The notes: generated by a model not told the origin, from the sequence alone. DNA of 64,000 nucleotides from Escherichia coli 042 (GCF_000027125.1 NC_017626.1), one strand, 5' to 3'; positions 16,646-63,926 are shown, counted from the first letter of the stretch. Program-made: numbers and translations.

Positions 16646-17107
16646 ATGGAACTAAAATTTATTGATAACCCTGTGCGATTACAGGCCTTTCTTAACGATC
16701 CTGGCAATACCGAAAATATTGTTGAGCCGGGGCACACGTACTACATCAAGCCTGATGCGGTATATCTCGGCATCTACGAAGGATTGGTGCTGGCTGGCGT
16801 TCATGAAGTGCGTAACTTCTGGCATAGCATTGTTGAATGCCATGCGGTGTACGACCCCGGATTCCGTGGTGAATATGCACTGCAAGGGCATCGATTATTC
16901 TGCAAATGGCTTCTCGAAAACTCACCATTCCTTAACAGCATCACTATGGTTCCTGACACCACGAAATACGGACGGGCAATTATCCGTTTGCTTGGCGCTA
17001 CCCGTGTTGGTCACCTTGATGATGCTTATATCAGATGTGGTAAACCCGTCGGCGTAACGCTTTATCAGTTAACTCGGCAACAATATAAGGAATTCAGCGA
17101 ATGTTAA
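16646..17107 (+). CDS. Hypothetical protein, first gene of a four-gene coupled operon
   Basis: 153-aa ORF; its stop overlaps the next start. Confidence 0.55.
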   Translation: MELKFIDNPVRLQAFLNDPGNTENIVEPGHTYYIKPDAVYLGIYEGLVLAGVHEVRNFWHSIVECHAVYDPGFRGEYALQGHRLFCKWLLENSPFLNSITMVPDTTKYGRAIIRLLGATRVGHLDDAYIRCGKPVGVTLYQLTRQQYKEFSEC

Positions 17108-17778: not shown

Positions 17779-19199
17779 TGGCGACATGGCAACTTGGCGG
17801 GCTGCCTAGCATGGCACCGCAAAATGATAATGCTCCTCGTTCTTCCGTTCCTCAGCCTGTGCAGTATCAGCAGCAGCCAAACGTAGGTTTAATGGCGCTA
17901 CAGGGGCTAAGAGGCGTTGCTGAGATTAATCAGCAGGCACGTCAACAACAGCGTAAAGCAGAGTTTCAGAAAGCATATGCCGGGGCTTTTGAGTCTGGAG
18001 ACAGAAACAAAATGCGCAGTCTTATTTCTGAGTATCCAGAAGAATTTGAAAGCGTTCAGAAAGGGATGGGCTTTATTGATGACGACCAGAGAAATTCTAT
18101 TGGTCATCTTGCGACTAGTGCTCAAATCGCATCTTCGCTCGGAACTGGGGCATTTGGAAAATTCATAGCAGATAACGAAGATGAAATGCGTCGCTTGGGA
18201 ATTTCTCCTGAGTCTGTTGCCGAAATGCATGTTAATGATCCACAGGAATTCCAGCGGCTTGCTGGTAGTATGGCACTGTTTTCTCTCGGTCATGAGAAGT
18301 ACTTCGATATCAAAGATCGAATGGAAGGTCGGGATATTGAGCGTGGCAAGTTGGCAGAGACAATCCGCAGCAATCAGGCTGGAGAGGCGCTTCAGGCGAG
18401 AGGGCAGGATATTAGCCGAGCAAATGCGTTAACGTCAGCATATGCACCAACAGCCGCAATGCAGAATTACAATCAGTACGCGCAAATGTTAAAGGCGGAT
18501 CCAGAGGGGGCAGCGGCATTTGCGGCAGCGGCTGGAATTAATACAAACGCCAAAAAATTAATGAGTGTTAGGGAAAACGATGATGGCACTGTCACAAAAT
18601 ACTACACAGACGGAAGTGAAGAGCAGGGAAAACTAAACCAGCCAATATCTGGAGATGGGTTTCGTCCAATAGCTTTGCCAACAGCCCAAAAGATCATGGA
18701 AAAGTCGCCAGAAGGGGCTAAAAAAGCTGCTGGATTTGCATACAGAGTTAGGGATGCTCTTGATTCAATGGATACACTGAAAGGCCAGCTTAGCCCACAG
18801 CGAGTGGCGATCATTAATAATGCTTTGGGTAATGGGACGCTGGCTAACTTAACGCTCAGCCCAACAGAGCAGCAATACGTTGTTAATGCTAATGACGCAA
18901 TAATGGCAATACTCCGTCAGGAAACAGGGGCAGCTATCGTACCTGCTGAAATGTCAAAATATTATCAAATGTATTTCCCTCAGCCTGGCGACTCCACAAA
19001 AACCATTGATACCAAGCGCCGGAAGATGGAAAACCAGTTCAATTCGCTGAAAGCTGCTTCTGGTCGAGCTTATGATGCTTTGCGTGTTATTTCAGCAGTT
19101 GACAGAGGAACTTCTTCTTCGTCGCAGACATTGCCGCAATCTGAGCAGGTATCACAGCCAGCAGCCAGCAGTAATTTTTCTTCACTATGGGGTGATTAA
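17778..19199 (+). CDS. Hypothetical protein (Q/A-rich)
   Basis: 473-aa ORF, start overlaps the previous stop. Confidence 0.55.
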   Translation: MATWQLGGLPSMAPQNDNAPRSSVPQPVQYQQQPNVGLMALQGLRGVAEINQQARQQQRKAEFQKAYAGAFESGDRNKMRSLISEYPEEFESVQKGMGFIDDDQRNSIGHLATSAQIASSLGTGAFGKFIADNEDEMRRLGISPESVAEMHVNDPQEFQRLAGSMALFSLGHEKYFDIKDRMEGRDIERGKLAETIRSNQAGEALQARGQDISRANALTSAYAPTAAMQNYNQYAQMLKADPEGAAAFAAAAGINTNAKKLMSVRENDDGTVTKYYTDGSEEQGKLNQPISGDGFRPIALPTAQKIMEKSPEGAKKAAGFAYRVRDALDSMDTLKGQLSPQRVAIINNALGNGTLANLTLSPTEQQYVVNANDAIMAILRQETGAAIVPAEMSKYYQMYFPQPGDSTKTIDTKRRKMENQFNSLKAASGRAYDALRVISAVDRGTSSSSQTLPQSEQVSQPAASSNFSSLWGD

Positions 19200-44605: not shown

Positions 44606-44700
44606 GGAAGATCGTCGTCTCCGGTGAGGCGGCTGGACTTCAAATCCAGTTGGGGCCGCCAGCGGTCCCGGGCAGGTTCGACTCCTGTGATCTTCCGCCA
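44606..44700 (+). tRNA. selC: tRNA-Sec (selenocysteine, anticodon UCA)
   Basis: 95-nt ggaagatcgtcgtctccggtgaggcggctggacttcaaatccagttggggccgccagcggtcccgggcaggttcgactcctgtgatcttccgcca; long extra arm; anticodon loop cTTCAaa. Confidence 0.95.
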
Positions 44701-44702
44701 AA
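44680..44702. repeat. attL core (3' end of selC)
   Basis: gactcctgtgatcttccgccaaa, repeated exactly at 55733..55755. Confidence 0.8.
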
Positions 44703-44862
44703 CTTCATCCAGCCAGTTCCGAGATGATCCATAAAACCATTTATATTCAATATGATGAATAATCATCTTATCCGTAACAGTCCGAGATCGTCTCCCTAAA
44801 TCCGCGAAAAATATGTATAGTAATGTGTATAGATTTTTTATAAGTAGTTTTCAGTTATACAC

Positions 44863-46044
44863 ATGGCTCTCACCGATATACAGATCAAACGTGCAAAACC
44901 ACAAGACAAGCCATACACATTGAACGATGGACAAGGTCTGTCATTGCTTATCAATCCCGATGGCTCGAAAGGCTGGCGTTTCCGTTTCCGGTTTGCAGGG
45001 AAAGCGCGGTTAATGTCATTTGGCAGCTACGATTTAGTAAGCCTCGCAGAAGCACGTGAGAAGCGTGATATCGCCCGTAAGCAGGTTGCTAATGGCATTG
45101 ACCCGGTAGAGGAACGCAAAGCTTTAAGACTCGCCCAAAAGCTATCAACAGAAAATTCTTTCGAAGCAATATGTCGAGAATGGCATACCAACAAAGCTGA
45201 CCGCTGGACTGTGGCCTATCGAGAAGAAATCATTAAGACATTCGAGCAAGATGTCTTCCCGTTCATTGGTAAACGTCCTATCAGTGAAATCAAACCATTA
45301 GAACTGCTTGAAGTATTACGACGAATCGAAAAACGTGGAGCACTAGAGAAAACACGCAAGGTGCGTCAAAGATGCGGTGAGGTTTATCGCTATGCAATCA
45401 TAACTGGCCGTGCTGAGTACAATCCTGCACCTGATTTAGCTATCGCTCTGGCCGTTCCCAAGCAAAAACACCATCCATTTTTATCCGCTGAAGAGTTGCC
45501 TCATTTTATTCGAGATCTTGAAGCGTATACCGGTAGCATCATCACCAAAAATGCTACGAAGATAGTCATGCTGACTGGTGTAAGAACGCAGGAGATGCGC
45601 TTTGCTACGTGGGAAGAAGTAGACCTCGAAAAAGGTATATGGGAGATACCAGCGGAACGTATGAAAATGCGTAGACCTCACATTGTTCCTTTATCTACTC
45701 AGGTAGTTGACCTTTTCAAACAGCTCAAACCTATTACCGGCCATTACCCTTACATCTTTATTGGTAGGAATAACCGTAATAAACCAATCTCAAAAGAAAG
45801 TGTATCACAAGTAATTGAGTCACTCGGTTACAAAGGACGTGCTACCGGTCACGGTTTTAGACATACAATGTCGACAATTCTACATGAGCAGGGGTTTGAT
45901 AGTGCATGGATTGAGATGCAATTAGCACATGTGGACAAAAACAGTATTCGTGGGACATATAACCATGCCCAGTATCTGGAAGGCAGAAAAAAAATGATGA
46001 ATTGGTATGCTAATCATATCTTTAATATAGGGGTTCCTAAATGA
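44863..46044 (+). CDS. int: P4-type tyrosine integrase
   Basis: 393 aa MALTDIQIKRAKPQDKPYTLNDGQGLSLLINPDGSKGWRFRF; sits beside attL. Confidence 0.9.
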   Translation: MALTDIQIKRAKPQDKPYTLNDGQGLSLLINPDGSKGWRFRFRFAGKARLMSFGSYDLVSLAEAREKRDIARKQVANGIDPVEERKALRLAQKLSTENSFEAICREWHTNKADRWTVAYREEIIKTFEQDVFPFIGKRPISEIKPLELLEVLRRIEKRGALEKTRKVRQRCGEVYRYAIITGRAEYNPAPDLAIALAVPKQKHHPFLSAEELPHFIRDLEAYTGSIITKNATKIVMLTGVRTQEMRFATWEEVDLEKGIWEIPAERMKMRRPHIVPLSTQVVDLFKQLKPITGHYPYIFIGRNNRNKPISKESVSQVIESLGYKGRATGHGFRHTMSTILHEQGFDSAWIEMQLAHVDKNSIRGTYNHAQYLEGRKKMMNWYANHIFNIGVPK

Positions 46045-46179
46045 CAAACAATGTTCTTACCATACATAATCGCTTGTTTATCAACCAGTTACATTTCTAT
46101 AGAATGAATTTCACTTATATCAACTACAACGGTTGACATTTAAAAAATATTAACATTTAAAAAAAGTAGGAGCTACGCA

Positions 46180-47616
46180 ATGTGCATAGAATTAAAAAAG
46201 TTTTCAATTAAAAAATTATATGGCTATAAAGACATACATCTAATTTTCAATAAAAAAAGTACAATTATCATTGCAGAGAATGGTGCTGGCAAAACTACGC
46301 TAATCAATGCACTTAAATCCACCTTAAAAGGTGAGTTTGATGAACTAAGAAAAATCAAGTGTGAGAGTATTGATATAGAGTTTTCTGATCAAAAATTCAC
46401 ATTGAATATTGCAGCATTAAGTTATTCTGATTTTCTGAATAATGCATTGTTACCAACTAGATTTCGTGAAATCACGAAAAATCTTAATAATACACAAATT
46501 GAAGATGCATTAGCATTTCTAAGACATAAACCAGTGAAGGATGCCCGTCAGACTACATGGTACCGAAAAATGTATCATACAACTCCTTATAATTACATTG
46601 ATATCGACTCGACATTATCCGAAGTCAAAATCTTATTAAAAAATCATTATTCATCTCTTGAAAAACCTGATCTTTTCTCTGTAAATAAACCAGAACTGTC
46701 TAAAACCATCCATGCAATAGAGGAAATAAAACAGAAAACAAAAAATATTGAAATAATATATTTACCTACATACCGACGCATTGAAAAATCTACACTTCGT
46801 GATAAGTTTACTAGAGATGAAAATGAAAAATTCGTCTTTAGAGATGGAGAGATCGTCAGTATTCGCGAGGAAAGTGAAACTAACTTAAATATAGAGTTTG
46901 GTTTGTTTGATGTTGAATCAAAATTAAAAGATTTAAGCGCATCCATTGAGCGCCGTTCAAGTTTAGGCTATAGAAAGTTAAGTGCAACCATAATTGAAGA
47001 TATGATGACAGGAAAAGCCAGTGCCCCAACAAAACCTAAACTGCCATCTGTATCTGAATTATCAAGATTTTTAGGTAGGGTAGTTAATAAAGATAAGGAA
47101 AGTAATAAGAGGATAATTCAAGAAGTTACAAGCATCATGGAAAATAAAGATATGCTCGCATCAAATAATATGCTGAGTTATTTCCTATCTAAATTAAAAG
47201 CTGTCATCGACTCAACTAAAGAGCTCGAACTAAAAATAGAGAGCTTTGTTACCATTTGCAATAAATATCTACAGTTATCAGATGATTCAAAATCGCTAAA
47301 TTTTGACATTGAAACATTACAAGTTATTGTAAAAGACTTATTCACAAATAACCCCATTGAATTAGAAGATCTTTCCTCAGGCGAAAAACAAATAATTTCT
47401 TTGATGGCTCATATGTATCTTGACCATACTAAGAAAAAAATTGTTTTAATAGATGAACCAGAATTATCGCTCTCACTTGAATGGCAAGAGCATGTCCTCG
47501 TAGATATAGTGAATAGCCCTTCAGTTACTCAAATGCTTGCAATAACACATTCACCTTTTGTTTTTAATAATGAACTGAAATCCCAAGTAACATCTTTGAA
47601 AGTTATCAAGCATTGA
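46180..47616 (+). CDS. ABC-type ATPase (AAA_15/AAA_21-like), candidate AriA-like (PARIS) or AbiLi-like defense ATPase
   Basis: 478 aa; Walker A AENGAGKTTLINAL; Walker B/D-loop IVLIDEPELSLSLEW; H-loop-like AITHSP; AT-rich; SD gtaggag 8 nt upstream; in the P4 int-psu cargo slot. Confidence 0.7.
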   Translation: MCIELKKFSIKKLYGYKDIHLIFNKKSTIIIAENGAGKTTLINALKSTLKGEFDELRKIKCESIDIEFSDQKFTLNIAALSYSDFLNNALLPTRFREITKNLNNTQIEDALAFLRHKPVKDARQTTWYRKMYHTTPYNYIDIDSTLSEVKILLKNHYSSLEKPDLFSVNKPELSKTIHAIEEIKQKTKNIEIIYLPTYRRIEKSTLRDKFTRDENEKFVFRDGEIVSIREESETNLNIEFGLFDVESKLKDLSASIERRSSLGYRKLSATIIEDMMTGKASAPTKPKLPSVSELSRFLGRVVNKDKESNKRIIQEVTSIMENKDMLASNNMLSYFLSKLKAVIDSTKELELKIESFVTICNKYLQLSDDSKSLNFDIETLQVIVKDLFTNNPIELEDLSSGEKQIISLMAHMYLDHTKKKIVLIDEPELSLSLEWQEHVLVDIVNSPSVTQMLAITHSPFVFNNELKSQVTSLKVIKH

Positions 47617-47624
47617 GGATTAGA

Positions 47625-48551
47625 ATGGACGATCTTCGTTTTAATATGATGATGGATGCGATCAAAAAACCGTGTGTTTTGAGATTAAAGCTAATTAAAA
47701 ACAAAAAGGCAGGAAAGGCTTTATTTGTTTTCGAAGGTGACGATGACTATGATTTCTATCATCATGCTATAACTATTTCCGGTTTCGATAAAGAATATAC
47801 TCATATAAATGGGGCAGGAAAGAACCAATCTATTTCCCTTTATGAAGAATTATATAAAGAAAATAGTGATAATTTACAAAACACATATTTTTTTGTTGAT
47901 CAAGATTACTCTACCTTCTGTTACTCTAATAAAAACATAGTAACACTTCCATTTTATGCCATTGAGAACCCATTATCAGATGATAGAGTAATAAAACATT
48001 TTATAATCTCAACATTTAAACTTGACGAAAGGCATAGCAAAATTATAAATAGCGTTATGGGCTTTTATTCTAAGGCAAAAGCTAGCTTTTATTCTGAGAT
48101 AAAAAACATATCTATACAGCTGTATATGTCCAGAATACTTGGACTCGCGATAGAGTTTCCTTCAAACCATGAATTATTCGAAAAAATTGAAAAGGAAAAA
48201 GTCACCCTTAAAATAAATGAAATACCGGCAATTACTGATCGGTTAAAAAAAATAACAAAAGACGAAGAGAATTACTACAAAGTAATTTCCACTCTAGATA
48301 ATGACAAACTGACTAGAGGAAAGTATGTTTACTATTTTGTTAGCGAGTGGTTAATCCGCATAAAAAAATACATCAATTCAAGGATAGATAGTATAAATAA
48401 TGAAAGCGCCTTAAACTCTACCTCTTCAGTAGTGAATGAAAAAAAATTATCCAAACAACAATATGATCATACTGACCTGTCAATCGCAAGGCTTGTTCCT
48501 GCATGTATGAAAGTAAAAGAATTGGATGCTTTCTTAAAAAGGATTAATTAA
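47625..48551 (+). CDS. TOPRIM / DUF4435-like protein, candidate AriB-like (PARIS) or AbiLii-like effector
   Basis: ORF track starts at a TTG (47613); I place the start at the ATG 47625 with SD gagga 6-10 nt upstream. LFVFEGDDDYDFY and FFVDQDY fit TOPRIM Glu and DxD acidic motifs; AT-rich; separated from the upstream ATPase stop by 8 nt. Confidence 0.65.
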   Translation: MDDLRFNMMMDAIKKPCVLRLKLIKNKKAGKALFVFEGDDDYDFYHHAITISGFDKEYTHINGAGKNQSISLYEELYKENSDNLQNTYFFVDQDYSTFCYSNKNIVTLPFYAIENPLSDDRVIKHFIISTFKLDERHSKIINSVMGFYSKAKASFYSEIKNISIQLYMSRILGLAIEFPSNHELFEKIEKEKVTLKINEIPAITDRLKKITKDEENYYKVISTLDNDKLTRGKYVYYFVSEWLIRIKKYINSRIDSINNESALNSTSSVVNEKKLSKQQYDHTDLSIARLVPACMKVKELDAFLKRIN

Positions 48552-48570
48552 TAATAAAACACTGCGGGCG

Positions 48571-48589
48571 GTGCTTTCCCCGCCTCGCC
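48571..48589 (-). other. cos site (P2/P4 19-nt cohesive end)
   Basis: Reverse complement of gtgctttccccgcctcgcc is ggcgaggcggggaaagcac, the P2/P4 cohesive end as recalled; an adjacent hairpin ccgcccg-ctttgc-cgggcgg plus tttt (48589..48612) may act as a terminator. Confidence 0.7.
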
Positions 48590-48754
48590 CGCCCGCTTTG
48601 CCGGGCGGTTTTAATGCAGTTGCGCTGACACGCTCAGGCCGCGTCGGGCGCGGCGTGAGCTGCAGAAAATGAGTCAGGAAAACGCATGCAAAGCCATGCA
48701 CCTTATCGATGCATGGCTTTTTTCAGTAAAAACAGGCGGATTTTTCGGGGAGTT

Positions 48755-49327
48755 TTACACAGACTGACGTGATGCCAGTTCTGCACTTTTACGCGAAAAA
48801 ATCATGTTCTGCGCAGGGGTGAATTTTTCACGGCTGTCATCCACCGAAGCCGCGTCAGGCCTGAATCCGATGGTCGTTAAAATGTCGCTATCCTGTGCGG
48901 AATAATTAATTTTTTCCCCCTTCGCAAGCCAGGACAGAAGGGCTTCACGCAGGACATCTGTGGCACGCTGTATGGCACAGTTTCGGGCAATGGCCGTCAG
49001 CTCACTGTAGCCCATCAGCTCCGGTGCCAGTGCGGCCGCCAGTGCTGTGCCGTGCTGCTGCATAAAATCATTCAGCCGCTCGCGGATGCTGATGTGCTGA
49101 ACGGCTTCATGCGAACGAACATAACGACCGGCGGCCTGATTCACCTGCCATTTTCTGACTTCGATAATATTGCGTAATTCGTCCAGGCGACTGACGTTTC
49201 TGCCTTCCCCGGACAGAAGCCGCAGATATTCCTGTTCGGCTGCCGCCAGTTCATTTTTGCGCTGAAGCCATGCCGCTTTGTTATTCTGGCAGACCTCAAA
49301 AGCCTGCTGTAATGACATTGTGGTCAC
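48755..49327 (-). CDS. psu: Polarity suppression protein Psu (capsid decoration / Rho antagonist)
   Basis: 190 aa; MTTMSLQQAFEVCQNNKAAWLQRKNELAAAEQEYLRLL closely matches P4 Psu as recalled. Confidence 0.85.
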   Translation of the reverse strand: MTTMSLQQAFEVCQNNKAAWLQRKNELAAAEQEYLRLLSGEGRNVSRLDELRNIIEVRKWQVNQAAGRYVRSHEAVQHISIRERLNDFMQQHGTALAAALAPELMGYSELTAIARNCAIQRATDVLREALLSWLAKGEKINYSAQDSDILTTIGFRPDAASVDDSREKFTPAQNMIFSRKSAELASRQSV

Positions 49328-49341
49328 ACCCCGTCCCCTGA

Positions 49342-49587
49342 TTAATGGTTGAATGGTGAGCTGTAACAGCCTTTAACTTTTCGGACAACAGCCGGTGCTG
49401 TGCTTACCGGTGCTGGTTTTTCCTCCGTGACCGGAGAACGAATCACGGCACAAATTGACTCATGCGTTTTAAATGTCGCCGAACAGTAAATATTCTGGCA
49501 CTGCAGATAACTTTCTTTGACATTGTCACTCACATACCGGCTGGTGCGGGTATGCGCTGAATGACGACAGAAAGGGCAGCGCATCAT
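49342..49587 (-). CDS. delta: Ogr/Delta-family zinc-finger late transcription activator
   Basis: 81 aa; CPFCRHSAHTRTSRYVSDNVKESYLQCQNIYCSATF (C4 zinc finger); single-domain form. Confidence 0.8.
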   Translation of the reverse strand: MMRCPFCRHSAHTRTSRYVSDNVKESYLQCQNIYCSATFKTHESICAVIRSPVTEEKPAPVSTAPAVVRKVKGCYSSPFNH

Positions 49588-50318
49588 GACAGCAGTCCTC
49601 TGGCCTTAAGCTCTGCTCCCTGCTGGTCTATTTTGTCCTGCCACACCTTGCGCTGTGCCGGTGTGCCTGCCACCTCATAATCCATGTGCGGGAGTGTTGC
49701 CGCTGACAGTCCGGTCAGCCGGAGAACCGGCTCGCCGGTGAGGCTGATTTGCATCTGTTTTATTTTCTGTTCCAGCGATGATTTCACCTGCTGCATGACA
49801 GCCTTTTCCGGCGCGACGTAGCCCTGATGGCCGGTGGTGTTGGCGAGCGGATTTTCCTGTACCAGGATGCTCAGATGCATTGCCCGGACAAGCGCCTCAC
49901 AGGTTTCATTCAGGGCGTGTTCCAGCTCATGCTCTGCATACAGACTCAGCAGGTGATGATGTGCCTTCCGGTAGGCGGTGGCCGTGCTGTCACACGCCCC
50001 TTTCAGGCGTTCACGTTCAAAATTCAGCACCACGGCCAGATTGTCATATTCCTGTACCAGCTCCCGGCGTGCCACGCGCTCAATGTGGCGCTGTTTCAGC
50101 TCGTCGCTCAGGACACCACCGGCTGCACGAAAGGCCGTGCGCCAGTCGTCAGCGTCGTTTCCGTCGGCCTGCGCCAGCGCATTTTTTTCCTGCTCTGCCC
50201 GTTCAATGGCCGTGACGGTCTCATCCATCAGGCGGGCGTTCTCAAGATGGGCGGCTCTGGCCTTTTCCAGTTGTGCCAGCGCGGGTTGCAGATATTCAGG
50301 GATGGTGTTGTCAGACAT
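49584..50318 (-). CDS. sid: Capsid size determination protein Sid (external scaffold)
   Basis: ORF 49584..50384; start placed at MSDNTIPEYLQPALAQ (aggag SD 5 nt upstream), giving 244 aa, the length I recall for P4 Sid; position upstream of delta and psu. Confidence 0.7.
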   Translation of the reverse strand: MSDNTIPEYLQPALAQLEKARAAHLENARLMDETVTAIERAEQEKNALAQADGNDADDWRTAFRAAGGVLSDELKQRHIERVARRELVQEYDNLAVVLNFERERLKGACDSTATAYRKAHHHLLSLYAEHELEHALNETCEALVRAMHLSILVQENPLANTTGHQGYVAPEKAVMQQVKSSLEQKIKQMQISLTGEPVLRLTGLSAATLPHMDYEVAGTPAQRKVWQDKIDQQGAELKARGLLS

Positions 50319-50487
50319 TTTCCGGCTCCTCGTCACTTCAGGTTGAGAAAATTGTGACGTACACCGGACAACAACACGACGCATTGCAGATGTGCCAGCC
50401 CTGACACAGGAGACTCATCCTCAGACCGGCAAGCCAGGAAAAGGTCGCAGGAAAAACCGGCTTACTGTTTGTTTTTTTTATATTTTA

Positions 50488-50592
50488 CTGTTCACCTCTG
50501 TTCACCATAAGAAAAAAGATAAGTAATACAGTAAGTTAAAGGGTGAACAATCGCAGTAATGACTGTTCACCGTCTGTTCACCACTGTTCACC
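50488..50592. repeat. Iteron cluster (TGTTCACC / GGTGAACA), alpha-binding ori- or crr-type repeat in the sid-vis intergenic region
   Basis: At least six TGTTCACC octamers in both orientations within about 105 bp; the P4 type I iteron is TGTTCACC as recalled; which of ori or crr this set represents is not resolved. Confidence 0.6.
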
Positions 50593-50870
50593 CGTTGATG
50601 GGCTTTTTGTGCTGTTTATTACTTTTTATTTTTATTAATTCACTGAAATAAATAAGAAAAAACAATTTGTATTTCACTATAATTTTTTCCAGCTCCTTCC
50701 AGAGCGTTTTAAAGCTATCTGGCGCTGATGTACAAAAAATACACAGCCATTGTAAGGCTGCCGGAACAAATCCCCCCTGTTGCGTCTGCCGAAAATATTC
50801 ACAAAATAAAGCGCTACCCGAAGCCGGACGGACTTATCCGGTGCTGTATGGACATTAACGAGGTAGCCCG

Positions 50871-51137
50871 ATGCAAGCTGTTTTTTCTTCCCCGTCTCCC
50901 GCCCCTGTGACGCCACTGATGCCGCTGCCGGACATCACGCAGGAGCGTTTTTTACGTCTGCCGGAAGTGATGCACCTGTGCGGCCTGTCACGCTCGACCA
51001 TCTACGAACTCATCCGTAAGGGGGAATTTCCGCCGCAGGTGAGTCTTGGCGGTAAAAATGTGGCCTGGCTGCACTCTGAAGTCACCGCATGGATGGCCGG
51101 GCGCATTGCCGGACGCAAACGGGGGTACGACGCATGA
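50871..51137 (+). CDS. vis: Vis / AlpA-family regulator (P4 orf88-like)
   Basis: 88 aa; [50 protein letters not shown] (AlpA HTH). Confidence 0.75.
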
Positions 51138-51379
51138 TGATGCCCGCTCTGCAAAAAGTCCCTTTTTCTGGCTTGCCTTTTTCCGGCATTTGCGGATATA
51201 GTTTTTCCGCTGCCGCAAAATCGGCAGCCGGGCGTAGGAACCCGTGTAACTCGAAGGCGACATATGACGCGCCATGCGTCTTTTTTTGTGTCGCAATCAA
51301 CGCCACAGAGCGCCAGATTATGGTGTGGCGTGTGGTTTGCCGTGCAGGTATGATCCTGTTCGCAATCGCATGTTATGCC

Positions 51380-51505
51380 ACTGAGTCAATGGTAGCTCAG
51401 GCGGGGCAGCCTCCGGGCTGGCCGGTATTCTTCGAGGCCGGTATTCCTACCCCCGTCTGGGCTATCGCCATCGAGCGTAGGAACTCCGGCGATAGCAGTT
51501 ATTTG
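51380..51505 (+). ncRNA. Candidate CI/C4-type immunity RNA
   Basis: Homologous to 10600..10730 with compensatory stem changes; preceded by a hairpin plus T-run (gacgcgccatgcgtc ttttttt at about 51264-51292). Confidence 0.45.
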
Positions 51506-51526
51506 CTACTCGAAGGAGGCTGCCTT

Positions 51527-51724
51527 ATGGCTACAACCCTTACCCCCTCACACCCTGAATTTGTCTTTGTGTTTGCGGCTGTCCGTCGCGCAGACCGTCA
51601 TCCCCGTATCTGCATGCTTCGCACCGTCGCCGGTGATGAACGCAGCGCCCGCCGTTCCCTTGTCCGTGACTATGTGCTCTCCCTTGCTGCCCGTCTGCCG
51701 GTGGTGGAGGTGTCCCGTGCGTAA
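51527..51724 (+). CDS. Icd/Kil-like small protein
   Basis: 66 aa [50 protein letters not shown]...; gaaggagg SD; homologous to the island-1 ORF 10759..10953. Confidence 0.5.
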
Positions 51725-52004
51725 TAAAAAAGCCCCTCAGACCGTCTCAGCGCGTCATGACGCCCGTGAACACCTCAGCATTGAGGCTTACCATAAGCTC
51801 AACCGCGCCAGCGCCGTATCCCAGTTTGTTGGGGGTGATTTGATTCACCGTGAACTCTCCGGCCTGCATCAGCTCTACATTCCGCATATTTTCAGCTACC
51901 TGAATGAAGATATTGATTTTGTGCTGAATGAGCTGAAAGCCAAAGGCCTGTGCCGCGATTTTCTCGCCCAGCAGAAAGACCGGGGAGACAGGACGCATGT
52001 TTGA
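51717..52004 (+). CDS. Hypothetical protein (occupies the position of P4 epsilon)
   Basis: ORF track frame 51561..52004; proposed GTG start at 51717 overlapping the icd-like stop; start uncertain. Confidence 0.35.
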
Positions 52005-52452
52005 TTTTCCCCAGCCCGGTGAGATTTACCGTTCTGCCGGTTTTCCCGATGTGGCCGTGGTCGGCATTCTGGAAGACGGTATTCCGTGGGAAATGCCGTA
52101 CCGCTGCCCGGACATTGTCTGGAACCCGTACCGCCGTAAATTCAGTATCCTTGTGCGTATCCTCGCTGACGGGCGCACCACAGACATCCCGCTGGGGCGT
52201 TTTCTGCGGGAATTTACCTGTGACCGTCCTGACCTGTTCAAACGCAGCCCCGTAAACCGGCATGCGGTACTGAAAGAAATGGCCGGAGACCCGGAATTAC
52301 AGAAATGGCGGGTGAAATATCTGGATATTTACCCGCAGGACCCTGTTCCGGCCAGCCGGGCGGCACCGGTGGCGCGGGAATGGCGGGAAATTCCCCGCAC
52401 GGAGCCTGACCCGGAAATCACACCGGATAACAGTTACCGCAATTATCTGTAA
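51997..52452 (+). CDS. Hypothetical protein (P4 orf151-like by position and length)
   Basis: 151-aa ORF overlapping the upstream stop; the P4 left operon has an ORF of this size, as recalled. Confidence 0.5.
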   Translation: MFDFPQPGEIYRSAGFPDVAVVGILEDGIPWEMPYRCPDIVWNPYRRKFSILVRILADGRTTDIPLGRFLREFTCDRPDLFKRSPVNRHAVLKEMAGDPELQKWRVKYLDIYPQDPVPASRAAPVAREWREIPRTEPDPEITPDNSYRNYL

Positions 52453-52587
52453 TTAAAAAACGACACCCGAAAAATTAAATGTGCGTATTCGCGCAGGGAT
52501 ACGCACGTCTTCAGGAGACGCAGATATGCCTTATCAGTTAATGCAACCGGCACAGAATGCAGTCATCTGTCACAGGGAGGAAAGCAA

Positions 52588-52908
52588 ATGAAAACACCCT
52601 TACCGCCCGTCTTACGCGCTGCCCTTTACCGTCGCGCTGTCGCCTGTGCCTGGCTGACCGTGTGCGAACGTCAGCACCGCTACCCGCATCTCACCCTTGA
52701 ATCACTGGAGGCGGCCATCGCCGCTGAGCTGGAAGGCTTTTATCTGCGCCAGCACGGTGAGGAAAAAGGGCGTCAGATAGCCTGTGCCCTGCTGGAAGAT
52801 TTAATGGAATCCGGCCCCCTGAAGGCCGCGCCGTCGCTGTCCTTTCTCGGGCTGGTTGTGATGGATGAACTCTGTGCCCGTCACATAAAAGCGCCGGTAC
52901 TGCACTGA
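52588..52908 (+). CDS. Hypothetical protein
   Basis: 106-aa ORF immediately upstream of alpha. Confidence 0.45.
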
Positions 52909-52922
52909 AGGAGAACAACACC

Positions 52923-55256
52923 ATGAAAATGAACGTAACCGCCACCGTCAGCCATGCGCTCGGCCACTGGCCGCGTATTCTCCCGGCGCTGGGGATTCAG
53001 GTGCTGAAAAACCGTCATCAGCCCTGTCCGGTCTGTGGCGGGAGTGACCGCTTCCGTTTTGATGACAGGGAGGGGCGCGGCACCTGGTACTGCAATCAGT
53101 GTGGTGCCGGTGACGGCCTGAAACTGGTTGAAAAGGTGTTTGGTGTTTCCCCGTCCGACGCGGCCGCAAAGGTGGCTGCCGTGACCGGCAGCCTGCCACC
53201 GGCTGACCCGGCAGTGACGACCGCCGCCGTTGCTGAAACAGACGCTGCCCGGAAGAACGCCGCCGCACTGGCACAAACCCTGATGGCGAAAACCCGTCCC
53301 GGAACCGGTAACGCCTACCTGACCCGCAAGGGCTTTCCCGGCCGGGAATGCCGGATGCTGACCGGCACACACAGAGCCGGTGGCGTGAGCTGGCGCGCCG
53401 GTGACCTTGTGGTGCCACTGTATGACGACAGCGGCGAACTGGTTAACCTTCAGTTAATCAGTGCTGACGGCCGTAAGCGCACCCTGAAAGGCGGACAGGT
53501 CAGGGGCACCTGTCACACCCTTGAAGGACAGAATCAGGCCGGAAAACGTCTGTGGATAGCGGAGGGATACGCGACCGCACTTACCGTACATCACCTGACC
53601 GGTGAAACGGTGATGGTGGCGCTTTCTTCCGTGAACCTCCTTTCTCTGGCCAGCCTTGCCCGGCAGAAGCATCCGGCCTGTCAGATTGTCCTTGCCGCAG
53701 ACCGTGACCTCAGCGGTGACGGCCAGAAAAAAGCCGCCGCAGCCGCAGATGCGTGTGAGGGCGTTGTTGCCCTGCCGCCGGTCTTCGGTGACTGGAATGA
53801 TGCCTTCACGCAGTACGGCGGGGAGGCCACCCGTAAGGCCATTTACGATGCCATCCGGCCACCGGCTGAAAGCCCGTTCGACACCATGAGCGAAGCAGAG
53901 TTTTCCGCCATGAGTACCAGCGAAAAGGCCATGCGTATCTATGAGCATTACGGCGAGGCGCTCGCGGTCGATGCCAACGGCCAGCTTCTGTCCCGCTATG
54001 AAAATGGTGTCTGGAAGGTGCTGCCGCCACAGGACTTTGCCCGGGATGTGGCCGGGCTGTTTCAGCGGCTGCGTGCGCCGTTCTCCTCCGGGAAGGTGGC
54101 CTCCGTGGTGGACACCCTGAAGCTGATTATTCCGCAGCAGGAAGCCCCCTCCCGCCGCCTGATTGGCTTTCGTAACGGCGTGCTCGACACGCAGAACGGT
54201 ACGTTCCACCCGCACAGTCCGTCACACTGGATGCGCACCCTGTGCGATGTGGATTTCACCCCGCCGGTGGACGGTGAAACGCTGGAAACCCACGCTCCCG
54301 CGTTCTGGCGCTGGCTTGACCGTGCTGCCGGTGGTCGTGCGGAAAAACGCGACGTGATTCTGGCCGCACTGTTTATGGTGCTCGCAAACCGCTACGACTG
54401 GCAGCTCTTTCTGGAGGTGACCGGTCCCGGCGGCAGCGGCAAAAGTATCATGGCCGAAATAGCCACCCTGCTGGCCGGGGAGGATAACGCCACATCGGCC
54501 ACCATTGAGACGCTGGAATCCCCGCGTGAACGTGCCGCGTTAACTGGCTTCTCACTGATACGCCTGCCGGACCAGGAAAAATGGAGCGGCGACGGTGCCG
54601 GACTCAAGGCCATCACCGGCGGCGATGCGGTGTCCGTTGACCCGAAATACCGGGATGCATACTCCACGCATATCCCGGCGGTGATTCGGGCCGTGAACAA
54701 TAACCCGATGCGCTTCACCGACCGCAGCGGCGGCGTGTCACGCCGGCGGGTGATTATTCACTTCCCGGAACAGATAGCCCCGCAGGAGCGCGACCCGCAG
54801 CTTAAGGACAAAATCACCCGCGAGCTGGCGGTCATCGTGCGTCACCTGATGCAGAAGTTCAGCGACCCGATGCTCGCCCGGTCACTGCTTCAGTCCCAGC
54901 AGAACTCAGACGAGGCGCTGAACATCAAACGGGATGCCGACCCGACGTTTGATTTTATCGGCTATCTGGAAACCCTGCCGCAGACCAGCGGCATGTATAT
55001 GGGGAACGCCAGTATCATCCCGCGCAATTACCGTAAATACCTCTATCACGCCTATCTGGCCTACATGGAGGCAAACGGCTACCGGAACGTACTCAGTCTG
55101 AAAATGTTCGGGCTGGGGCTGCCGGTGATGCTGAAGGAATACGGACTGAATTACGAGAAACGCCATACCAAACAGGGGATACAGACCAACCTGACGCTGA
55201 AAGAGGAAAGCTACGGCGACTGGCTGCCAAAATGTGACGACCCTGCAACAACCTGA
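52923..55256 (+). CDS. alpha: P4 alpha primase-helicase
   Basis: 777 aa; CPVCGGSDRFRFDDREGRGTWYCNQCGAGDGL zinc motif; TOPRIM (IAEGYATALT ... LAADRD); P-loop GPGGSGKS; length equals P4 alpha as recalled. Confidence 0.9.
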   Translation: MKMNVTATVSHALGHWPRILPALGIQVLKNRHQPCPVCGGSDRFRFDDREGRGTWYCNQCGAGDGLKLVEKVFGVSPSDAAAKVAAVTGSLPPADPAVTTAAVAETDAARKNAAALAQTLMAKTRPGTGNAYLTRKGFPGRECRMLTGTHRAGGVSWRAGDLVVPLYDDSGELVNLQLISADGRKRTLKGGQVRGTCHTLEGQNQAGKRLWIAEGYATALTVHHLTGETVMVALSSVNLLSLASLARQKHPACQIVLAADRDLSGDGQKKAAAAADACEGVVALPPVFGDWNDAFTQYGGEATRKAIYDAIRPPAESPFDTMSEAEFSAMSTSEKAMRIYEHYGEALAVDANGQLLSRYENGVWKVLPPQDFARDVAGLFQRLRAPFSSGKVASVVDTLKLIIPQQEAPSRRLIGFRNGVLDTQNGTFHPHSPSHWMRTLCDVDFTPPVDGETLETHAPAFWRWLDRAAGGRAEKRDVILAALFMVLANRYDWQLFLEVTGPGGSGKSIMAEIATLLAGEDNATSATIETLESPRERAALTGFSLIRLPDQEKWSGDGAGLKAITGGDAVSVDPKYRDAYSTHIPAVIRAVNNNPMRFTDRSGGVSRRRVIIHFPEQIAPQERDPQLKDKITRELAVIVRHLMQKFSDPMLARSLLQSQQNSDEALNIKRDADPTFDFIGYLETLPQTSGMYMGNASIIPRNYRKYLYHAYLAYMEANGYRNVLSLKMFGLGLPVMLKEYGLNYEKRHTKQGIQTNLTLKEESYGDWLPKCDDPATT

Positions 55257-55305
55257 CCCACCTGACCGGCATCTGCCGGTCTTTTTTTATCCCGACATCC
55301 CCCGA

Positions 55306-55580
55306 AGGTGAACAATCCAGTGTTCACCCTTCACCGTATATTCACCCGTTATCACACTGAAATTAAAAGAAAAAAACGAAAGGTGAACAGTGTGAACAAT
55401 CAAATCAAAAAAACTTTTTTTCTTCCTGTGTGATTTTCAGTGCGGAGGATTAATCACCTGTATGAGTCACACCGGCAGAATGCCGTAGGTGAAGAATCGA
55501 ATGTTCACCCTTCACCCATTATTCACCACCTATCCAACTGAAATAAAAGGAGAAAACAGAAAGGGGAACAGTGTGAACAG
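55306..55580. repeat. Two direct copies of a 95-bp iteron-containing unit (crr- or ori-like) downstream of alpha
   Basis: Unit aggtgaaCaatccaGtgttcacccttcacc...aaaggtgaacagtgtgaacaa at 55306..55400, repeated with minor changes at 55486..55580; each unit has several TGTTCACC/GGTGAACA octamers. Confidence 0.65.
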
Positions 55581-55732
55581 TTCTTCCGAAAAAAAATTTT
55601 TTTCCTGAGTTAACGTGCGTGAAGATGCGTGTAAAAATTAATCGATAGATATTATATGTATAAGGATGTGTATAAATGAATTAGAGCTGATAAATATAAA
55701 CGATTGGAATCAAATGGTTATATATCAATTTA

Positions 55733-55755
55733 GACTCCTGTGATCTTCCGCCAAA
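55733..55755. repeat. attR (duplicate of the selC 3' end)
   Basis: gactcctgtgatcttccgccaaa, identical to 44680..44702. Confidence 0.8.
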
Positions 55756-56391
55756 ATTCCTCTTCTGACGTTCTCCAACCCCTTGTAATACTGTCAATCC
55801 AGATATTTTCTACTGCTCAATATTCAATCGGCTTCAGGAATACCTGATCAAAGGTTTTGTGATGGACGATGAGCGACTGAAGAATCCGCCTGTCGGTTCT
55901 TCTGTCCTCGAACGCATCCGCGATATTCGCGCCAGCATGCGCCGTGTTTATTTGCAGGTGATTTGCCCCCCTGCTGACTCTCAGCCAACTGTATCGCCAT
56001 TAAGGTGAAGATGTTGTTTTACACGCCCCAGAACACCCTTTTTTTATACGACGATTCTATTCCTTTAACCGCTGACGAAAAAAACTGACCTATAAACTTC
56101 ACCAATAATCAGACTGCCATCAAGATTAATGTGTTCATTTAATATATCAAATAAACTTGTTTTATTTTTACTATCAAAAATAGCTCATTGCCTTACTATA
56201 ATTAATATATAAATTCGGTGATTAATTCTTAACATGCTTTTGCTAATAATCTCAATTGCTGGCCCTATAATATTGCGCTAGCATTGTTTTCTGGTTGTAT
56301 CAGCGATACTCAAAAATTCTTAATATAATACTCATTCGACTGGTACTTATTTGTAACTCAGTTATATTTTGTCGCCCGGTGATTCAGAAGA

Positions 56392-60236: not shown

Positions 60237-60734
60237 ATGGAAAGCGCAAATCTGGATTTAGAAGAAAATAAAGAAATTGCCAGTAAGTTCGAACGTGCAC
60301 TAGGTATGGGAGCAACACTTGCAGAGCTGCATGGCATTACTCCGGATACACTTGAAGGCGTTTATGCTTACGCTTATAACTTTTATGAAAAAGGAAGACT
60401 TGACGAAGCTGAACTCTTTTTTAAATTTCTCTGTATTTATGATTTCCAAAATTATAACTATTTAAAAGGATATGCCGCCGTCTGTCAGTTGAAGAAAGAT
60501 TATCAAAAGGCATTCGACATGTATCATATCTGTTTAATGCTATCTCCCGATAACGATTTCTCTTTGGTTTATTACATGGGCCAGTGCCAGATGGGCTTAA
60601 AAAACACTAAAATGGCCACGGAGTTATTTAATACAGTCGTAACCTACAGCCAAAATGAAAAAATTAAAGAGATGGCTACTGCTTATCTTGAACTCTTGAC
60701 AGCCAATACCGAAGAGGAAGTTCAAACAGAGTGA
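60237..60734 (+). CDS. Type III secretion class II (TPR) chaperone, SicA/SycD/IpgC family
   Basis: 165 aa; TPR-like helices (LEGVYAYAYNFYEKGRLDEAELFFKFLCIYDFQNYNYLKGYAAVCQ); strong SD aaaggaga; followed by translocator-like genes; possibly the eicA-eipBCD locus described in enteroaggregative E. coli (from memory). Confidence 0.65.
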   Translation: MESANLDLEENKEIASKFERALGMGATLAELHGITPDTLEGVYAYAYNFYEKGRLDEAELFFKFLCIYDFQNYNYLKGYAAVCQLKKDYQKAFDMYHICLMLSPDNDFSLVYYMGQCQMGLKNTKMATELFNTVVTYSQNEKIKEMATAYLELLTANTEEEVQTE

Positions 60735-60980
60735 GTCGGCAAAATGAACATAAACGGAAAAAACTCTTCTTTTACGCCTGAAGAGTTAACCAGGAAATAT
60801 CATGAGAAAGCCCCGGTTGATTTAAAAATAACCATAGCGATAAAATAAATGAGAAGAATAACAATAAACACATTGCTTACTTTCCCGTTGATGCCATTTT
60901 AGATGGGAATAAACATCTGCCATGAGTTAAATAAAAAAGAATTAATTACACCCGATGATAGCTTAAAAAGGAGGTGAATT

Positions 60981-62762
60981 ATGTCGGCACCGATTACGGG
61001 ACAAACGATCACGTTTGAACAAATCAGCGAAACATTGCGCACACAGTATAGCGATGCGGAAAAAAGACTGCAGGACAGCAGCAAAACGCAAGTTGATCCC
61101 ATGCGGCTTAATAAAAACCCGAAATCCCTTGATAATGATATTCGCGCTCGTCTTGAAAACAAACCGATGCTTGCTCCGCCTGAAATGCAGGTTTTAGATT
61201 CAGACAACGCCACTACAGCAAAGACGAACGATGCCCGCCTGACGATGATTTTGGGTAATCTAACAGGCATTGCCGATCAGGATATTACAACACGATTGCA
61301 TAATAACCTTGACAGCACCCTGCTTCGACACGAAATGGCACATAATAAGTTTCGTGAATTAAGTGACGCTTACTCCTCGTCATTAGATTCCGCGCAAAAA
61401 GCCAACGACATCATGCATCAGGCCAATAATAATTACAATGCGGTCGATAAAAAGGTGCAATCGCTGGAGAAAAAAGTCAATGCATTGAATCAAGAGCTGT
61501 CGCAACTGCAACCTGGCGATCCGCAATATAATAAAGTGCTGACGCAAAAAAATGCGGCTGAGAAAACACTCACGCTGTCATTACAAAAAAAATCGTTAGC
61601 TGAGAAATCGTTAAATACAGCCATTATGGATGCTGATGCTGCGATCGGCCAAAGTATGGAAATTTTTGACGAAATTCAACAGCAAGAACAGATTAATAAC
61701 TTTACCACCAATATTTGCCTGACCCAGGAAAACCAGAAAAACAGAAACGCGACAGCCACATTTATCCTTTTGATTACCTCAGTAATGGAAGTTATTGGTG
61801 ATACCAATTGCGAATCTATTAAAAATCAGTCTGAGGTAATGAAAGAGATTAACCATGTCAGGGAAAATAAACTCAATGAAACAGCGCGTAAATATACTAA
61901 ATGGACAAAAGTTGTAAAAATCGTTAATGAGTGTGTAACTGTAGCTACCATTGCCATGAGCGCAATCTTAATTGTTGTTGGTCTTCTTGCTGCAGTTCCA
62001 AGTGGTGGTTCAAGTATTGCGGGTGCATTAGCACTTATTGGAGGAATAGCGGGCGCAGTAGTATTAGGTGTAGATATCACTTGTCAAATCGCTCTGGGCA
62101 CCACGGCTACCGGCTGGATTTTAGGGAAAGTTGTAGAAGGTCTTTCGGCTGCTATTAAAACAGTTGATCCCACTCTGCTCGCAATCACCGCGCTTCTGGA
62201 CGTTATTGGTGTCGATCAAGATACGATTGAACTGGTTAAAAGTATTTACGCAAGTGCAGCCGCTTCTATTGTCATGGCGACAGTAATGATTGGTGCAGCT
62301 GTAATATGTTCTGTAGCAATAGGGGCCGTTGTTTCTGCATTATCAAAAACAGCCGCAGAAGAAGTCACCAAAGAAATAACAAGCACTATAAAATCAACCA
62401 TTGAATCTATTATTAAATCCGTTTCAAAAAATATTATAAAGGTATTAAACAGAGTATGCAGCATGATACAAACATCAGTCGTAGTTTTGAAGTTGATTGC
62501 CAAGATAAGTAATGCTCTGGAGAAAATAGGCTTAGCTATCTGTGAAACAGCAACATCGATAATGAATTATTGTGTTGCTGAAAACTCTGCCGACATGGCA
62601 ATTTTACAACAGGACATGAGTAATCTATCAAAAACGCGTGAACAAATGCTTTCAGTATTGCAAAGGGTGGATAAAACCGTCGAACAAGAGGTAAGTCAGA
62701 TGGTAAGAGTATTACAACACCGAACTGAAACCTTAAAATTTGCTTCCCATTCTATCGTATAA
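60981..62762 (+). CDS. T3SS major translocator, SipB/IpaB/YopB family-like
   Basis: 593 aa; coiled-coil N-terminal region then long hydrophobic hairpin (AMSAILIVVGLLAAVPSGGSSIAGALALIGGIAGAVVLGV...); SD aaggagg; directly after the chaperone gene. Confidence 0.6.
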   Translation: MSAPITGQTITFEQISETLRTQYSDAEKRLQDSSKTQVDPMRLNKNPKSLDNDIRARLENKPMLAPPEMQVLDSDNATTAKTNDARLTMILGNLTGIADQDITTRLHNNLDSTLLRHEMAHNKFRELSDAYSSSLDSAQKANDIMHQANNNYNAVDKKVQSLEKKVNALNQELSQLQPGDPQYNKVLTQKNAAEKTLTLSLQKKSLAEKSLNTAIMDADAAIGQSMEIFDEIQQQEQINNFTTNICLTQENQKNRNATATFILLITSVMEVIGDTNCESIKNQSEVMKEINHVRENKLNETARKYTKWTKVVKIVNECVTVATIAMSAILIVVGLLAAVPSGGSSIAGALALIGGIAGAVVLGVDITCQIALGTTATGWILGKVVEGLSAAIKTVDPTLLAITALLDVIGVDQDTIELVKSIYASAAASIVMATVMIGAAVICSVAIGAVVSALSKTAAEEVTKEITSTIKSTIESIIKSVSKNIIKVLNRVCSMIQTSVVVLKLIAKISNALEKIGLAICETATSIMNYCVAENSADMAILQQDMSNLSKTREQMLSVLQRVDKTVEQEVSQMVRVLQHRTETLKFASHSIV

Positions 62763-62774
62763 GAGGGTTCTAAC

Positions 62775-63926
62775 ATGGCCACCTATGAAATTAAAAATGC
62801 GACCAGCACACATAATATTAACAATCTCGATAAAACAATCTTTGATAGAGATTATAGTAAAGAAAACAACATACCAAATGATAATAAAATTGTGCAATAC
62901 TATAACCTTAAAGATATTAAGCATGACATAAGCTCTCAGTTTATAATATTAAAAAATACAGACAGAGAAGTCTGTCCGGAACTAAGAGTAAAACTATTGG
63001 ATAATCTTAATTATTCAAGGAATACGCTAGATAATTTGAGGGGTGACCTTAACAAACCTACAATTACATCCAGTCAATCAAGCAGTTCTACAGAGCAGAC
63101 CACTATTAAAATATCTAAATTTAATATCCTTGATATGCTAGATAATTTGACCATGCGACAACAAGCTGTTATGGAGGAATTTTTAAGGGTATTCACATCA
63201 ATGTATAAAGCCTCAGCTATGTCTGAGGCTATTATGAGCAATGTTTTTGAACAACTTGTCCAGTATCAGAGAAAAGAAACCGAACGCGCCACAGCAGCAA
63301 GTTCGATAGGTGTTATTATCGGGTCAGGAGTTGGCGCAGTCGGGGCCTCGGCATCTGCCGTAGCAAATTACAGAAGCCATCCCAAAAAGATGGTAACCCT
63401 TACACCTGACCAAGAGCATACTATCGAAAGAACTGATGATAATGCACAGCGCGCGTCAAAAAGGGAAGTTATAGAGCAACAAGCTTCTCTCAAACAAATA
63501 GATGAAAAAATAAAAAATACAACGAAAGATACGAATCTTAATGAAAAAGAAAAAGAAGAGGCGCTGAAATCATATGATAAAGAAAAAGAAGCTACTCTAG
63601 AAAAGATTAGAGATACAAACGAGAAAATTAGCACAAAACATAACAATAGGTATAATAAATATTTTACTATAGGTAAAGCAGATGTACTTTCACAGCTTAG
63701 CAATGAATCAATTCGAGCAACATCTAGATATCTAGAAAGCACTACTCATGCAGAAAAAGACATTGTTGAACAGGCTAAAAATGTTATGCATTCAGTTATG
63801 AGTAGCTATCTGGATCAAATTAGTCGTGATGTTCAAGGAAGAGATCAGGCACTTAATTTATTACAGCAAATAATACAAACCATTATTGATACTGATAGCG
63901 CTATCGTTCAAGGCATTCGCTCATAA
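62775..63926 (+). CDS. T3SS minor translocator, SipC/IpaC family-like
   Basis: 383 aa; central hydrophobic segment AASSIGVIIGSGVGAVGASASAV; K/E-rich coiled-coil C-terminal region; position after the SipB-like gene. Confidence 0.5.
   Translation: MATYEIKNATSTHNINNLDKTIFDRDYSKENNIPNDNKIVQYYNLKDIKHDISSQFIILKNTDREVCPELRVKLLDNLNYSRNTLDNLRGDLNKPTITSSQSSSSTEQTTIKISKFNILDMLDNLTMRQQAVMEEFLRVFTSMYKASAMSEAIMSNVFEQLVQYQRKETERATAASSIGVIIGSGVGAVGASASAVANYRSHPKKMVTLTPDQEHTIERTDDNAQRASKREVIEQQASLKQIDEKIKNTTKDTNLNEKEKEEALKSYDKEKEATLEKIRDTNEKISTKHNNRYNKYFTIGKADVLSQLSNESIRATSRYLESTTHAEKDIVEQAKNVMHSVMSSYLDQISRDVQGRDQALNLLQQIIQTIIDTDSAIVQGIRS

Follow-up and report, generated by a model that had tools for sequence, protein, structure and literature searches.

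What occupies the 3' end of selC in Escherichia coli 042, and could it still move? We analysed a window of 64,000 nucleotides from the chromosome of this strain (NC_017626.1), within which an original prediction, generated by a model from the sequence alone, had placed a near-complete P4-like satellite prophage at 44680–55755. We conclude with high confidence that this DNA is an intact 'Type A' P4-like satellite that carries its own tyrosine integrase, is inserted at the 3' end of selC, and corresponds to the prophage 042p9, also designated ROD61. The prediction is correct but ordinary, in that both the element and its cargo have already been published. Because the island was named in 2010 and its cargo has since been tested for defence, the element must be counted as already known.

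Boundaries and identity of the element

The integration target is the tRNA-Sec gene selC, located at 44606–44700 on the plus strand (ARAGORN; Rfam RF01852, 83.8 bits). As had been claimed, an exact 23-bp duplication of the tRNA 3' end flanks the element. The duplicated sequence, GACTCCTGTGATCTTCCGCCAAA, has exactly two copies in the window, where shuffled sequences are expected to contain no copy. One copy forms the attL core (44680–44702, plus strand), in which 21 of the 23 positions are the 3' end of the tRNA, and the other forms the attR core (55733–55755, plus strand). Additional att copies, which would be a sign of tandem islands, are absent from the window at up to three mismatches. The DNA between the two cores measures 11,030 bp (44703–55732), and the predicted excised circle is 11,053 bp, or 95% of the length of P4.

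These dimensions can be compared with the genome paper of strain 042 (Chaudhuri et al. 2010, PMC2808357), which describes ROD61 as a region of 11,030 bp at tRNA-selC and names it P4-like satellite 042p9. The same paper gives a second region, ROD60, as 20,092 bp long and beginning 38,652 bp upstream of ROD61 (PMC2808357). Counting back 38,652 bp from 44703 leads to position 6051, where an integrase open reading frame (ORF) starts, in exact agreement with the ROD60 spacing. In addition, two of the encoded proteins, AriB and Psu, correspond exactly to the strain 042 proteins CBG36819 and CBG36820 (AriB is CBG36819.1, UniProt D3H2D9_ECO44). Length, insertion site, spacing from ROD60 and protein sequences all agree, and the element is apparently the same object as 042p9/ROD61 of this enteroaggregative strain. 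However, the published description does not include a detailed anatomy, such as cos, ori and crr, the immunity allele or the identity of the cargo.

The integrase that the prediction had named is encoded by int (44863–46044, plus strand), a selC-specific tyrosine recombinase of the P4-integrase type with a DUF4102 arm-binding domain (NCBIfam NF007246, 291 bits; PHROGs). Its product is 37–38% identical to P4 Int by tblastn and alignment, with the catalytic R, HxxR, H and Y residues aligned. The best full-length phage integrase matches in a protein search of a phage collection, those of phiEt88 and HK633, are approximately 48% identical, and integrases with at least 80% nucleotide identity are present in 452 genomes. 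The sequence ATGTGTATA has only three copies in the window, each no more than 140 bp from an att core, and these copies are candidate arm-type Int sites on the strength of their number and position. Candidate sites near attL (44813–44864) consist of ATATGTATAGTAATGTGTATA together with an inverted ATGTGTATA, and those near attR (55655–55674, plus strand) of ATATGTATAAGGATGTGTATA.

Backbone, signals and RNA immunity

Gene identities were assigned by tblastn with P4 proteins (NC_001609/X51522) and supported by PHROGs and NCBIfam, with all assignments agreeing. Gene content and signals were observed directly in the DNA, and the functions attached to them are inferred from P4. A whole-element comparison with the P4 reference, which the original prediction had proposed as a check, yields two blocks of homology running from cos to crr (megablast and blastn against NC_001609). 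The first, 48563–49312, corresponds at 95% identity to P4 from position 27, back through cos, to 10903. The second, 49465–55602, corresponds at 96.6% identity to P4 10436–4291 and stops exactly at the outer end of crr. When identity is profiled per 100 bp, divergence from P4 is limited to a few modules: int and its arms, the cargo, delta, a patch at 50620–50745, and the immunity region (51200–51530).

Three genes lie on the minus strand. The capsid decoration protein and Rho inhibitor Psu (48755–49327) is 94.7% identical to P4 Psu over 188 of 190 residues (phrog_6366, 1e-98), and the capsid size-determination scaffold Sid (49584–50318, 244 residues) is 99.6% identical to its P4 counterpart. 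Between them, delta (49342–49587) encodes an 81-residue, single-domain late-gene activator of the Ogr/Delta zinc-finger family (NCBIfam NF007241, 80.5 bits) with one CX2C-X22-CX4C finger (C4, C7, C30 and C35). The exact 81-residue sequence is found on at least 1000 contigs, and therefore the single-domain form is common. On the plus strand, the alpA-type excisionase and regulator Vis (50871–51137, 88 residues) and the helper derepression protein epsilon (51717–52004, 95 residues) are each 98.9% identical to P4, followed by orf151 (51997–52452, 151 residues, 97.4%) and orf106 (52588–52908, 106 residues, DUF5375, 100%), the latter of which we take to be the P4 copy-number gene cnr. The primase-helicase replication initiator alpha (52923–55256, 777 residues) is 99.5% identical to the P4 protein over 776 of 777 residues and is followed by a terminator hairpin and T run known from the P4 annotation (55264–55281, plus strand). 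Thus psu, the single-domain delta, sid, vis, the three small ORFs (epsilon, orf151 and orf106) and the 777-residue alpha are all where the prediction had placed them.

The prediction had also held these components to be intact, and had named alpha, sid and psu as genes in which a frameshift or truncation would count against it. Alignment with P4 revealed no frameshift or truncation in these or any other P4-matched gene, and the PGAP gene models of a near-identical element in strain VR50 agree. Type A P4-like satellites are defined by the co-localization of int, psu, delta, sid, alpA/vis, epsilon and alpha (Moura de Sousa & Rocha, PMC8628076). All seven genes are co-localized here and full-length; psu, sid, vis, epsilon and alpha are 94.7–99.6% identical to P4, and int and delta are diverged alleles. 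Their order is also the conserved one, namely int, hotspot, cos, psu-delta-sid, alpA, epsilon and alpha, with att between alpha and int. The P4 genes gop, beta and cII are absent from the element in tblastn searches with the P4 proteins.

This gene content refutes one candidate explanation of the locus, namely a pathogenicity island in selC, of the LEE, PAI-I536, SHI-2 or SPI-3 type, that merely possesses a P4-family integrase. The classical role of selC as a site for such islands is in its favour, as are related integrases of approximately 80% nucleotide identity in O157, O145 and O111 strains. However, the 11 kb are fully explained by P4 genes plus the cargo genes ariA and ariB, virulence genes are absent between the att repeats, and the chance that this explanation is correct is negligible. 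The remark in the original prediction that selC is better known for pathogenicity islands stands insofar as it is a classical island site, but a P4-like satellite at this position is not unusual, given phiR73 in 1991 and 042p9 in 2010.

The packaging and replication signals of P4 are likewise in place. The core of cos that is common to P4 and P2, approximately 60 bp in length, spans 48564–48623 on the minus strand and is 91.7% identical to P2, with both flanks outside this core diverging from P2. Within it lies the 19-nucleotide cohesive end GGCGAGGCGGGGAAAGCAC (48571–48589, minus strand), which has no mismatches, is expected zero times by chance, and equals bases 1–19 of the P4 record. The exact P2/P4 cos 19-mer that had been reported is therefore real, and the element possesses the P2-type cos packaging signal of P4. 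The origin ori1 contains six TGTTCACC type-1 iterons (50489–50592) in the same arrangement as P4 9310–9413, and crr (55302–55602, plus strand) is composed of two 120-nucleotide direct repeats (55302–55421 and 55483–55602) that carry type-1 iterons and match the annotated P4 crr. In total, TGTTCACC is found 12 times in the window compared with 1.6 copies expected, including the six in ori and four at 55307–55509 in crr. The two clusters are about 4.8–5 kb apart, in agreement with the ori/crr-like iterons at two places that the prediction had described, and the alpha-dependent bipartite origin of P4, with ori iterons and two 120-bp crr repeats about 4.5–5 kb away, is present.

Activator sites of the TGT-N12-ACA form are also preserved. 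Two sites in the Psid region (50353–50370 and 50391–50408, within 50353–50408) are identical to P4, and one upstream of vis in the PLL late promoter region (50751–50768, plus strand) is conserved with P4. The divergent patch at 50620–50745 lies upstream of this PLL activator site and has been replaced relative to P4, while the DNA on both of its sides is 98–100% identical to P4.

In P4, immunity reportedly works through CI RNA-dependent premature termination of PLE transcripts, as described in work by Deho and Ghisotti. The corresponding region of the element (51173–51286, plus strand) has a PLE-like promoter (51173–51202), a leader with seqA (approximately 51232–51260) and an immunity terminator (51266–51280 plus a T run). 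The candidate CI-type RNA of the original prediction is recognized by Rfam as a C4 antisense RNA (RF01695; 51385–51472, plus strand) at 74.4 bits, compared with a gathering score of 45, and its seqB allele differs from that of P4. Matches to isrK (51209–51286, 72.3 bits) and to the c4-a1b1 target family (51196–51248, 49.1 bits) are also above the gathering scores. An eta ORF (51134–51724, plus strand) contains the nested gene kil (51527–51724, 65 residues), which is Icd-like (NCBIfam phage_ICD_like, 72 bits), and seqC (approximately 51476–51522) overlaps the kil ribosome-binding site.

Alignment of this region with P4 shows that the substitutions cluster at three sites, namely seqA in the leader, the CI RNA loops that hold seqB, and seqC, which covers the ribosome-binding site of kil. 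In P4, the targets GTGAGAAC and TTCACAGG pair with TTCTCAC and CCTGTGAA of the CI RNA, whereas in the element GTAGGAAC and CTCGAAGG pair with TTCCTAC and CTTCGAG. As in P4, both targets in the PLE leader, seqA and seqC, are thus complementary to seqB. In duplex folding, the element's own pairs reach -36 to -38 kcal/mol and those of P4 -39 to -41, but cross pairs between the element and P4 reach only -23 to -25. Matched compensatory changes in seqA, seqB and seqC argue for a functioning immunity circuit under selection, and the circuit of the element probably works and is heteroimmune to P4, judging from these sequences. With a matched allele of its own, the element is expected to be immune to itself and not to canonical P4. 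The allele is not rare, being found at 99% identity or higher in 138 complete E. coli records.

PARIS cargo and prospects of mobilisation

The slot between int and cos is filled by two genes 8 bp apart, both on the plus strand. The first, ariA (46180–47616), encodes the 478-residue ABC/SMC-like ATPase of PARIS (PADLOC AriA, 1.4e-32; identical to WP_000334847), and the second, ariB (47625–48551), its 308-residue DUF4435/Toprim nuclease effector (PADLOC AriB, 1.5e-15). The mechanical ORF of ariB begins at a TTG at 47613. The cargo has a G+C content of 28–32% compared with 50–64% for the backbone. Published Pfam thresholds for PARIS call for AAA_15 of at least 32 bits or AAA_21 of at least 27 bits adjacent to DUF4435 of at least 27 bits (Rousset et al. 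2022, PMC9122126). Here AriA scores 57.7 bits for AAA_15 and 46.2 bits for AAA_21, and AriB scores 62.4 bits for DUF4435, so that the pair qualifies as PARIS.

The defense cargo that the prediction had mentioned can be identified further as PARIS-1 of Rousset et al. 2022. WP_000334847 is listed in Table S1 of that study as a P4-hotspot system (PMC9122126), and AriA is also identical to the VR50 protein. The PARIS-1 insert of plasmid pFR84, labelled 'E. coli O42', has its first 399 nucleotides identical to 45952–46350 of the window, and the C-terminus of AriB is identical to the final 38 residues of PARIS-1 protein 2. With AriA and the int–cos hotspot of P4 also in common, the cargo matches PARIS-1 over every stretch of sequence that can be compared. 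PARIS-1 was cloned from strain 042 and defends against several phages when driven from Ptet (PMC9122126). The mechanism is described for the distant homologue from E. coli B185, in which AriB is kept sequestered by a hexamer of AriA until the anti-restriction protein Ocr sets it free, whereupon the Toprim nuclease brings translation to a halt (PMC10802264). AriA is only distantly related to that structurally solved PARIS-2 system (8ux9), which it matches over the C-terminal ~120 residues only (E = 1.6e-13), and AriB has no match in a PDB sequence search. Directly upstream of ariA, a tandem 15-nucleotide repeat, TTGACATTTAAAAAA and TTAACATTTAAAAAA (46133–46164), overlaps promoter-like hexamers. 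This repeat could be an operator, perhaps tied to the silence of PARIS-1 under its native promoter that is considered below.

If the parts act as they do in P4, a life cycle can be proposed for the element. In the lysogen, PLE transcripts would end early, and the processed CI RNA would use seqB to pair with both seqA and seqC. In the presence of a P2-type helper, epsilon would derepress the helper, Vis and Int would excise the 11,053-bp circle, and alpha would drive its replication from the iterons of ori and crr. Activation of Psid and PLL at the TGT-N12-ACA sites, and of the helper late genes, would fall to the single-domain Delta together with the helper Ogr, while Sid and Psu would redirect helper capsid assembly to small heads and the helper terminase would cut the shared cos core and package the satellite. 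The cargo in the variable int–cos slot would act by abortive infection, with the AriA ATPase sequestering AriB until a phage anti-restriction protein releases it, and PARIS-1 would travel with the satellite. By this analogy, the element and PARIS-1 are probably mobilisable by an incoming P2-type helper.

Several observations weigh against an intact and active satellite. Delta shares only about 51% identity with the N-terminal half of its P4 counterpart (45 residues, tblastn), and the three 10-bp type-2 ori repeats of P4 are not conserved (50620–50745, approximately 80% identity). PARIS-1 defended only when expressed from Ptet, and gave no defence from its native promoter (PMC9122126). Moreover, the 042 genome paper reports no P2-like phage in the genome (PMC2808357), and therefore the element would currently be stranded in its host. 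The original prediction that element and cargo are probably mobilisable thus holds as far as the parts, intact by sequence, are concerned. With no P2-like helper reported in the host, however, 'mobilisable' is to be read as mobilisable by an incoming P2-type phage.

The reported lack of a helper also suggests a different history, in which the island looks complete but is domesticated, immobile in its lineage, and kept because PARIS, or Psu, Kil or another product, benefits the host. The occupation of selC by related elements in many strains is consistent with this, as is a conserved rhuM fragment by attR that points to a long history of occupation of the locus. We nonetheless regard such a history as unlikely. 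None of 12 genes is disrupted; cos, ori, crr and both att cores are exact; and the changes at the immunity sites are compensatory rather than degenerative. The element is also far closer between 042 and VR50 than are its flanks, which indicates recent horizontal movement. Finally, a resident helper is unnecessary because an incoming P2-type phage suffices, as demonstrated for phiR73 in selC, where P2 infection yields infectious particles that re-integrate at selC (PMC6868368). An intact satellite awaiting such a phage is the reading that we prefer.

Neighbouring islands and relation to known satellites

A second integrative island, ROD60/042p8, lies between yicC and yicG at 6051–26142. It begins with an integrase (6051–7394) and an int-alpA RNA (7403–7469), and includes an antA/B-like gene, an 'ash family' ORF that contains isrK (10478–10555) and a second C4 antisense RNA (10618–10705), a TOPRIM/DUF927 primase of 919 residues (13124–15883), and a doc-family toxin (24267–24728). 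Homologues of three P22-like DNA ejection or transfer proteins (16646–21304) are approximately 90–93% identical in nucleotide sequence, in patches, to P22-like podoviruses. An imperfect 24-bp boundary repeat, CGTGTACATAGAGGTGTACATAAT, is found at 6054–6077 and 25959–25982. The island resembles a satellite-type element that combines RNA immunity of the P4 style with an ejection-protein cargo. Its sole homologue was given as ROD-9 of enterotoxigenic E. coli (ETEC) H10407 (PMC2808357), and at coverage of 80% or more we find it in 72 complete E. coli genomes.

Another possibility is that the selC element is naturally mobilised not by a P2-type phage but by another resident prophage, and that its CI RNA engages in cross-talk with the C4/isrK module of ROD60 40 kb upstream. 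The genome paper speculates on another resident prophage as helper (PMC2808357), and the loops of the CI RNA and of the 042p8 C4 RNA have a TTCGAG core in common. No P2-like sequence beyond cos was detected in the element or in ROD60 by comparison with the phage collection. We consider this possibility very improbable.

Just outside attR is a short RhuM-family pseudogene fragment (55848–56000), which VR50 and SMS-3-5 share. Another selC island, SPI-3, is known to contain RhuM, and the fragment may be the scar of an earlier selC island. Further downstream are genes of the eip type III secretion cluster, which encode a SicA/LcrH-like chaperone (60237–60734), a SipB-like protein (60981–62762) and a further ORF (62775–63926). 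The genes at 60237–63926 agree with the placement of the eip cluster beside selC in the 042 genome paper (PMC2808357).

How widely is the satellite at selC distributed? A survey of Enterobacterales puts P4-like satellites in about a third of genomes (PMC8628076). Among complete E. coli genomes, 2797 of 5426 match part of the element, and five carry all of it at 97.7–99.5% identity. In a comparison with VR50, identity is 98.6% and 96.4% in the chromosomal flanks, whereas the part from attL to the immunity region has only 4 differences in ~7,000 positions. The remainder (51725–55755), which comprises epsilon, orf151, orf106, alpha and crr, has 8–15 differences per kb (0.8–1.5%). Because the element is far closer to the VR50 copy than the flanks are, it appears to have been acquired horizontally in recent times, with additional recombination among P4 backbones. 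The step in divergence indicates that two P4-like backbones recombined, with a breakpoint near 51725.

The locus illustrates several known points: that P4-like satellites are common in E. coli, that they use tRNA sites including selC, and that the int–cos slot is a hotspot into which defence systems are swapped. What the analysis contributes is a base-accurate map of an intact satellite with an experimentally validated PARIS variant, together with clear sequence evidence for a heteroimmune CI-RNA allele with three matched pairing sites and for recent horizontal spread. Together these features make strain 042 a convenient natural system in which to study the transfer of PARIS by a satellite.

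Among known systems, the element is most readily compared with P4, with which it shares gene order, 95–97% nucleotide identity from cos through crr, an identical cos 19-mer, the iteron layout and the kind of RNA immunity. However, P4 Int targets leuX, whereas the integrase of the element targets selC and is accompanied by other attP arms. P4 carries gop, beta and cII in place of ariAB, and its Delta has two domains and 166 residues rather than one domain and 81 residues. In addition, the seqA, seqB and seqC allele is changed in a compensatory manner and the type-2 ori repeats are absent from the element, and P4 is 11,624 bp compared with 11,053 bp for the element's circle.

There is about an even chance that the element belongs to the lineage of the retronphage phiR73, with the retron Ec73 swapped for PARIS, and is not P4 proper. 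phiR73 is a P4-like, P2-dependent satellite of selC, and its Delta is also a single-domain protein. Furthermore, cassettes, among them retrons, are known to be swapped at the hotspot (PMC9122126 Table S1). By type, site and presumed helper the two elements are alike, but phiR73 carries retron Ec73, which the element lacks, and is 12.7 kb long (Inouye et al. 1991; Sun et al. 1991). The element contains neither a reverse transcriptase nor msr/msd, its cargo consists of the ORFs ariA and ariB alone, and no retron RNA family exceeds its Rfam threshold. The integrase has no high-identity match among the phages searched, a collection that does not include phiR73 itself, and the backbone from cos to crr is that of P4 (95–97% nucleotide identity).

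The closest illustration of cargo exchange on the same backbone is the selC element of E. coli SMS-3-5. It has the same integrase, att site, single-domain Delta and backbone, with 97% identity over 77% of the element. However, its hotspot is occupied by one gene for a 906-residue SIR2-family protein rather than by ariAB, and many other strains are alike in this respect.

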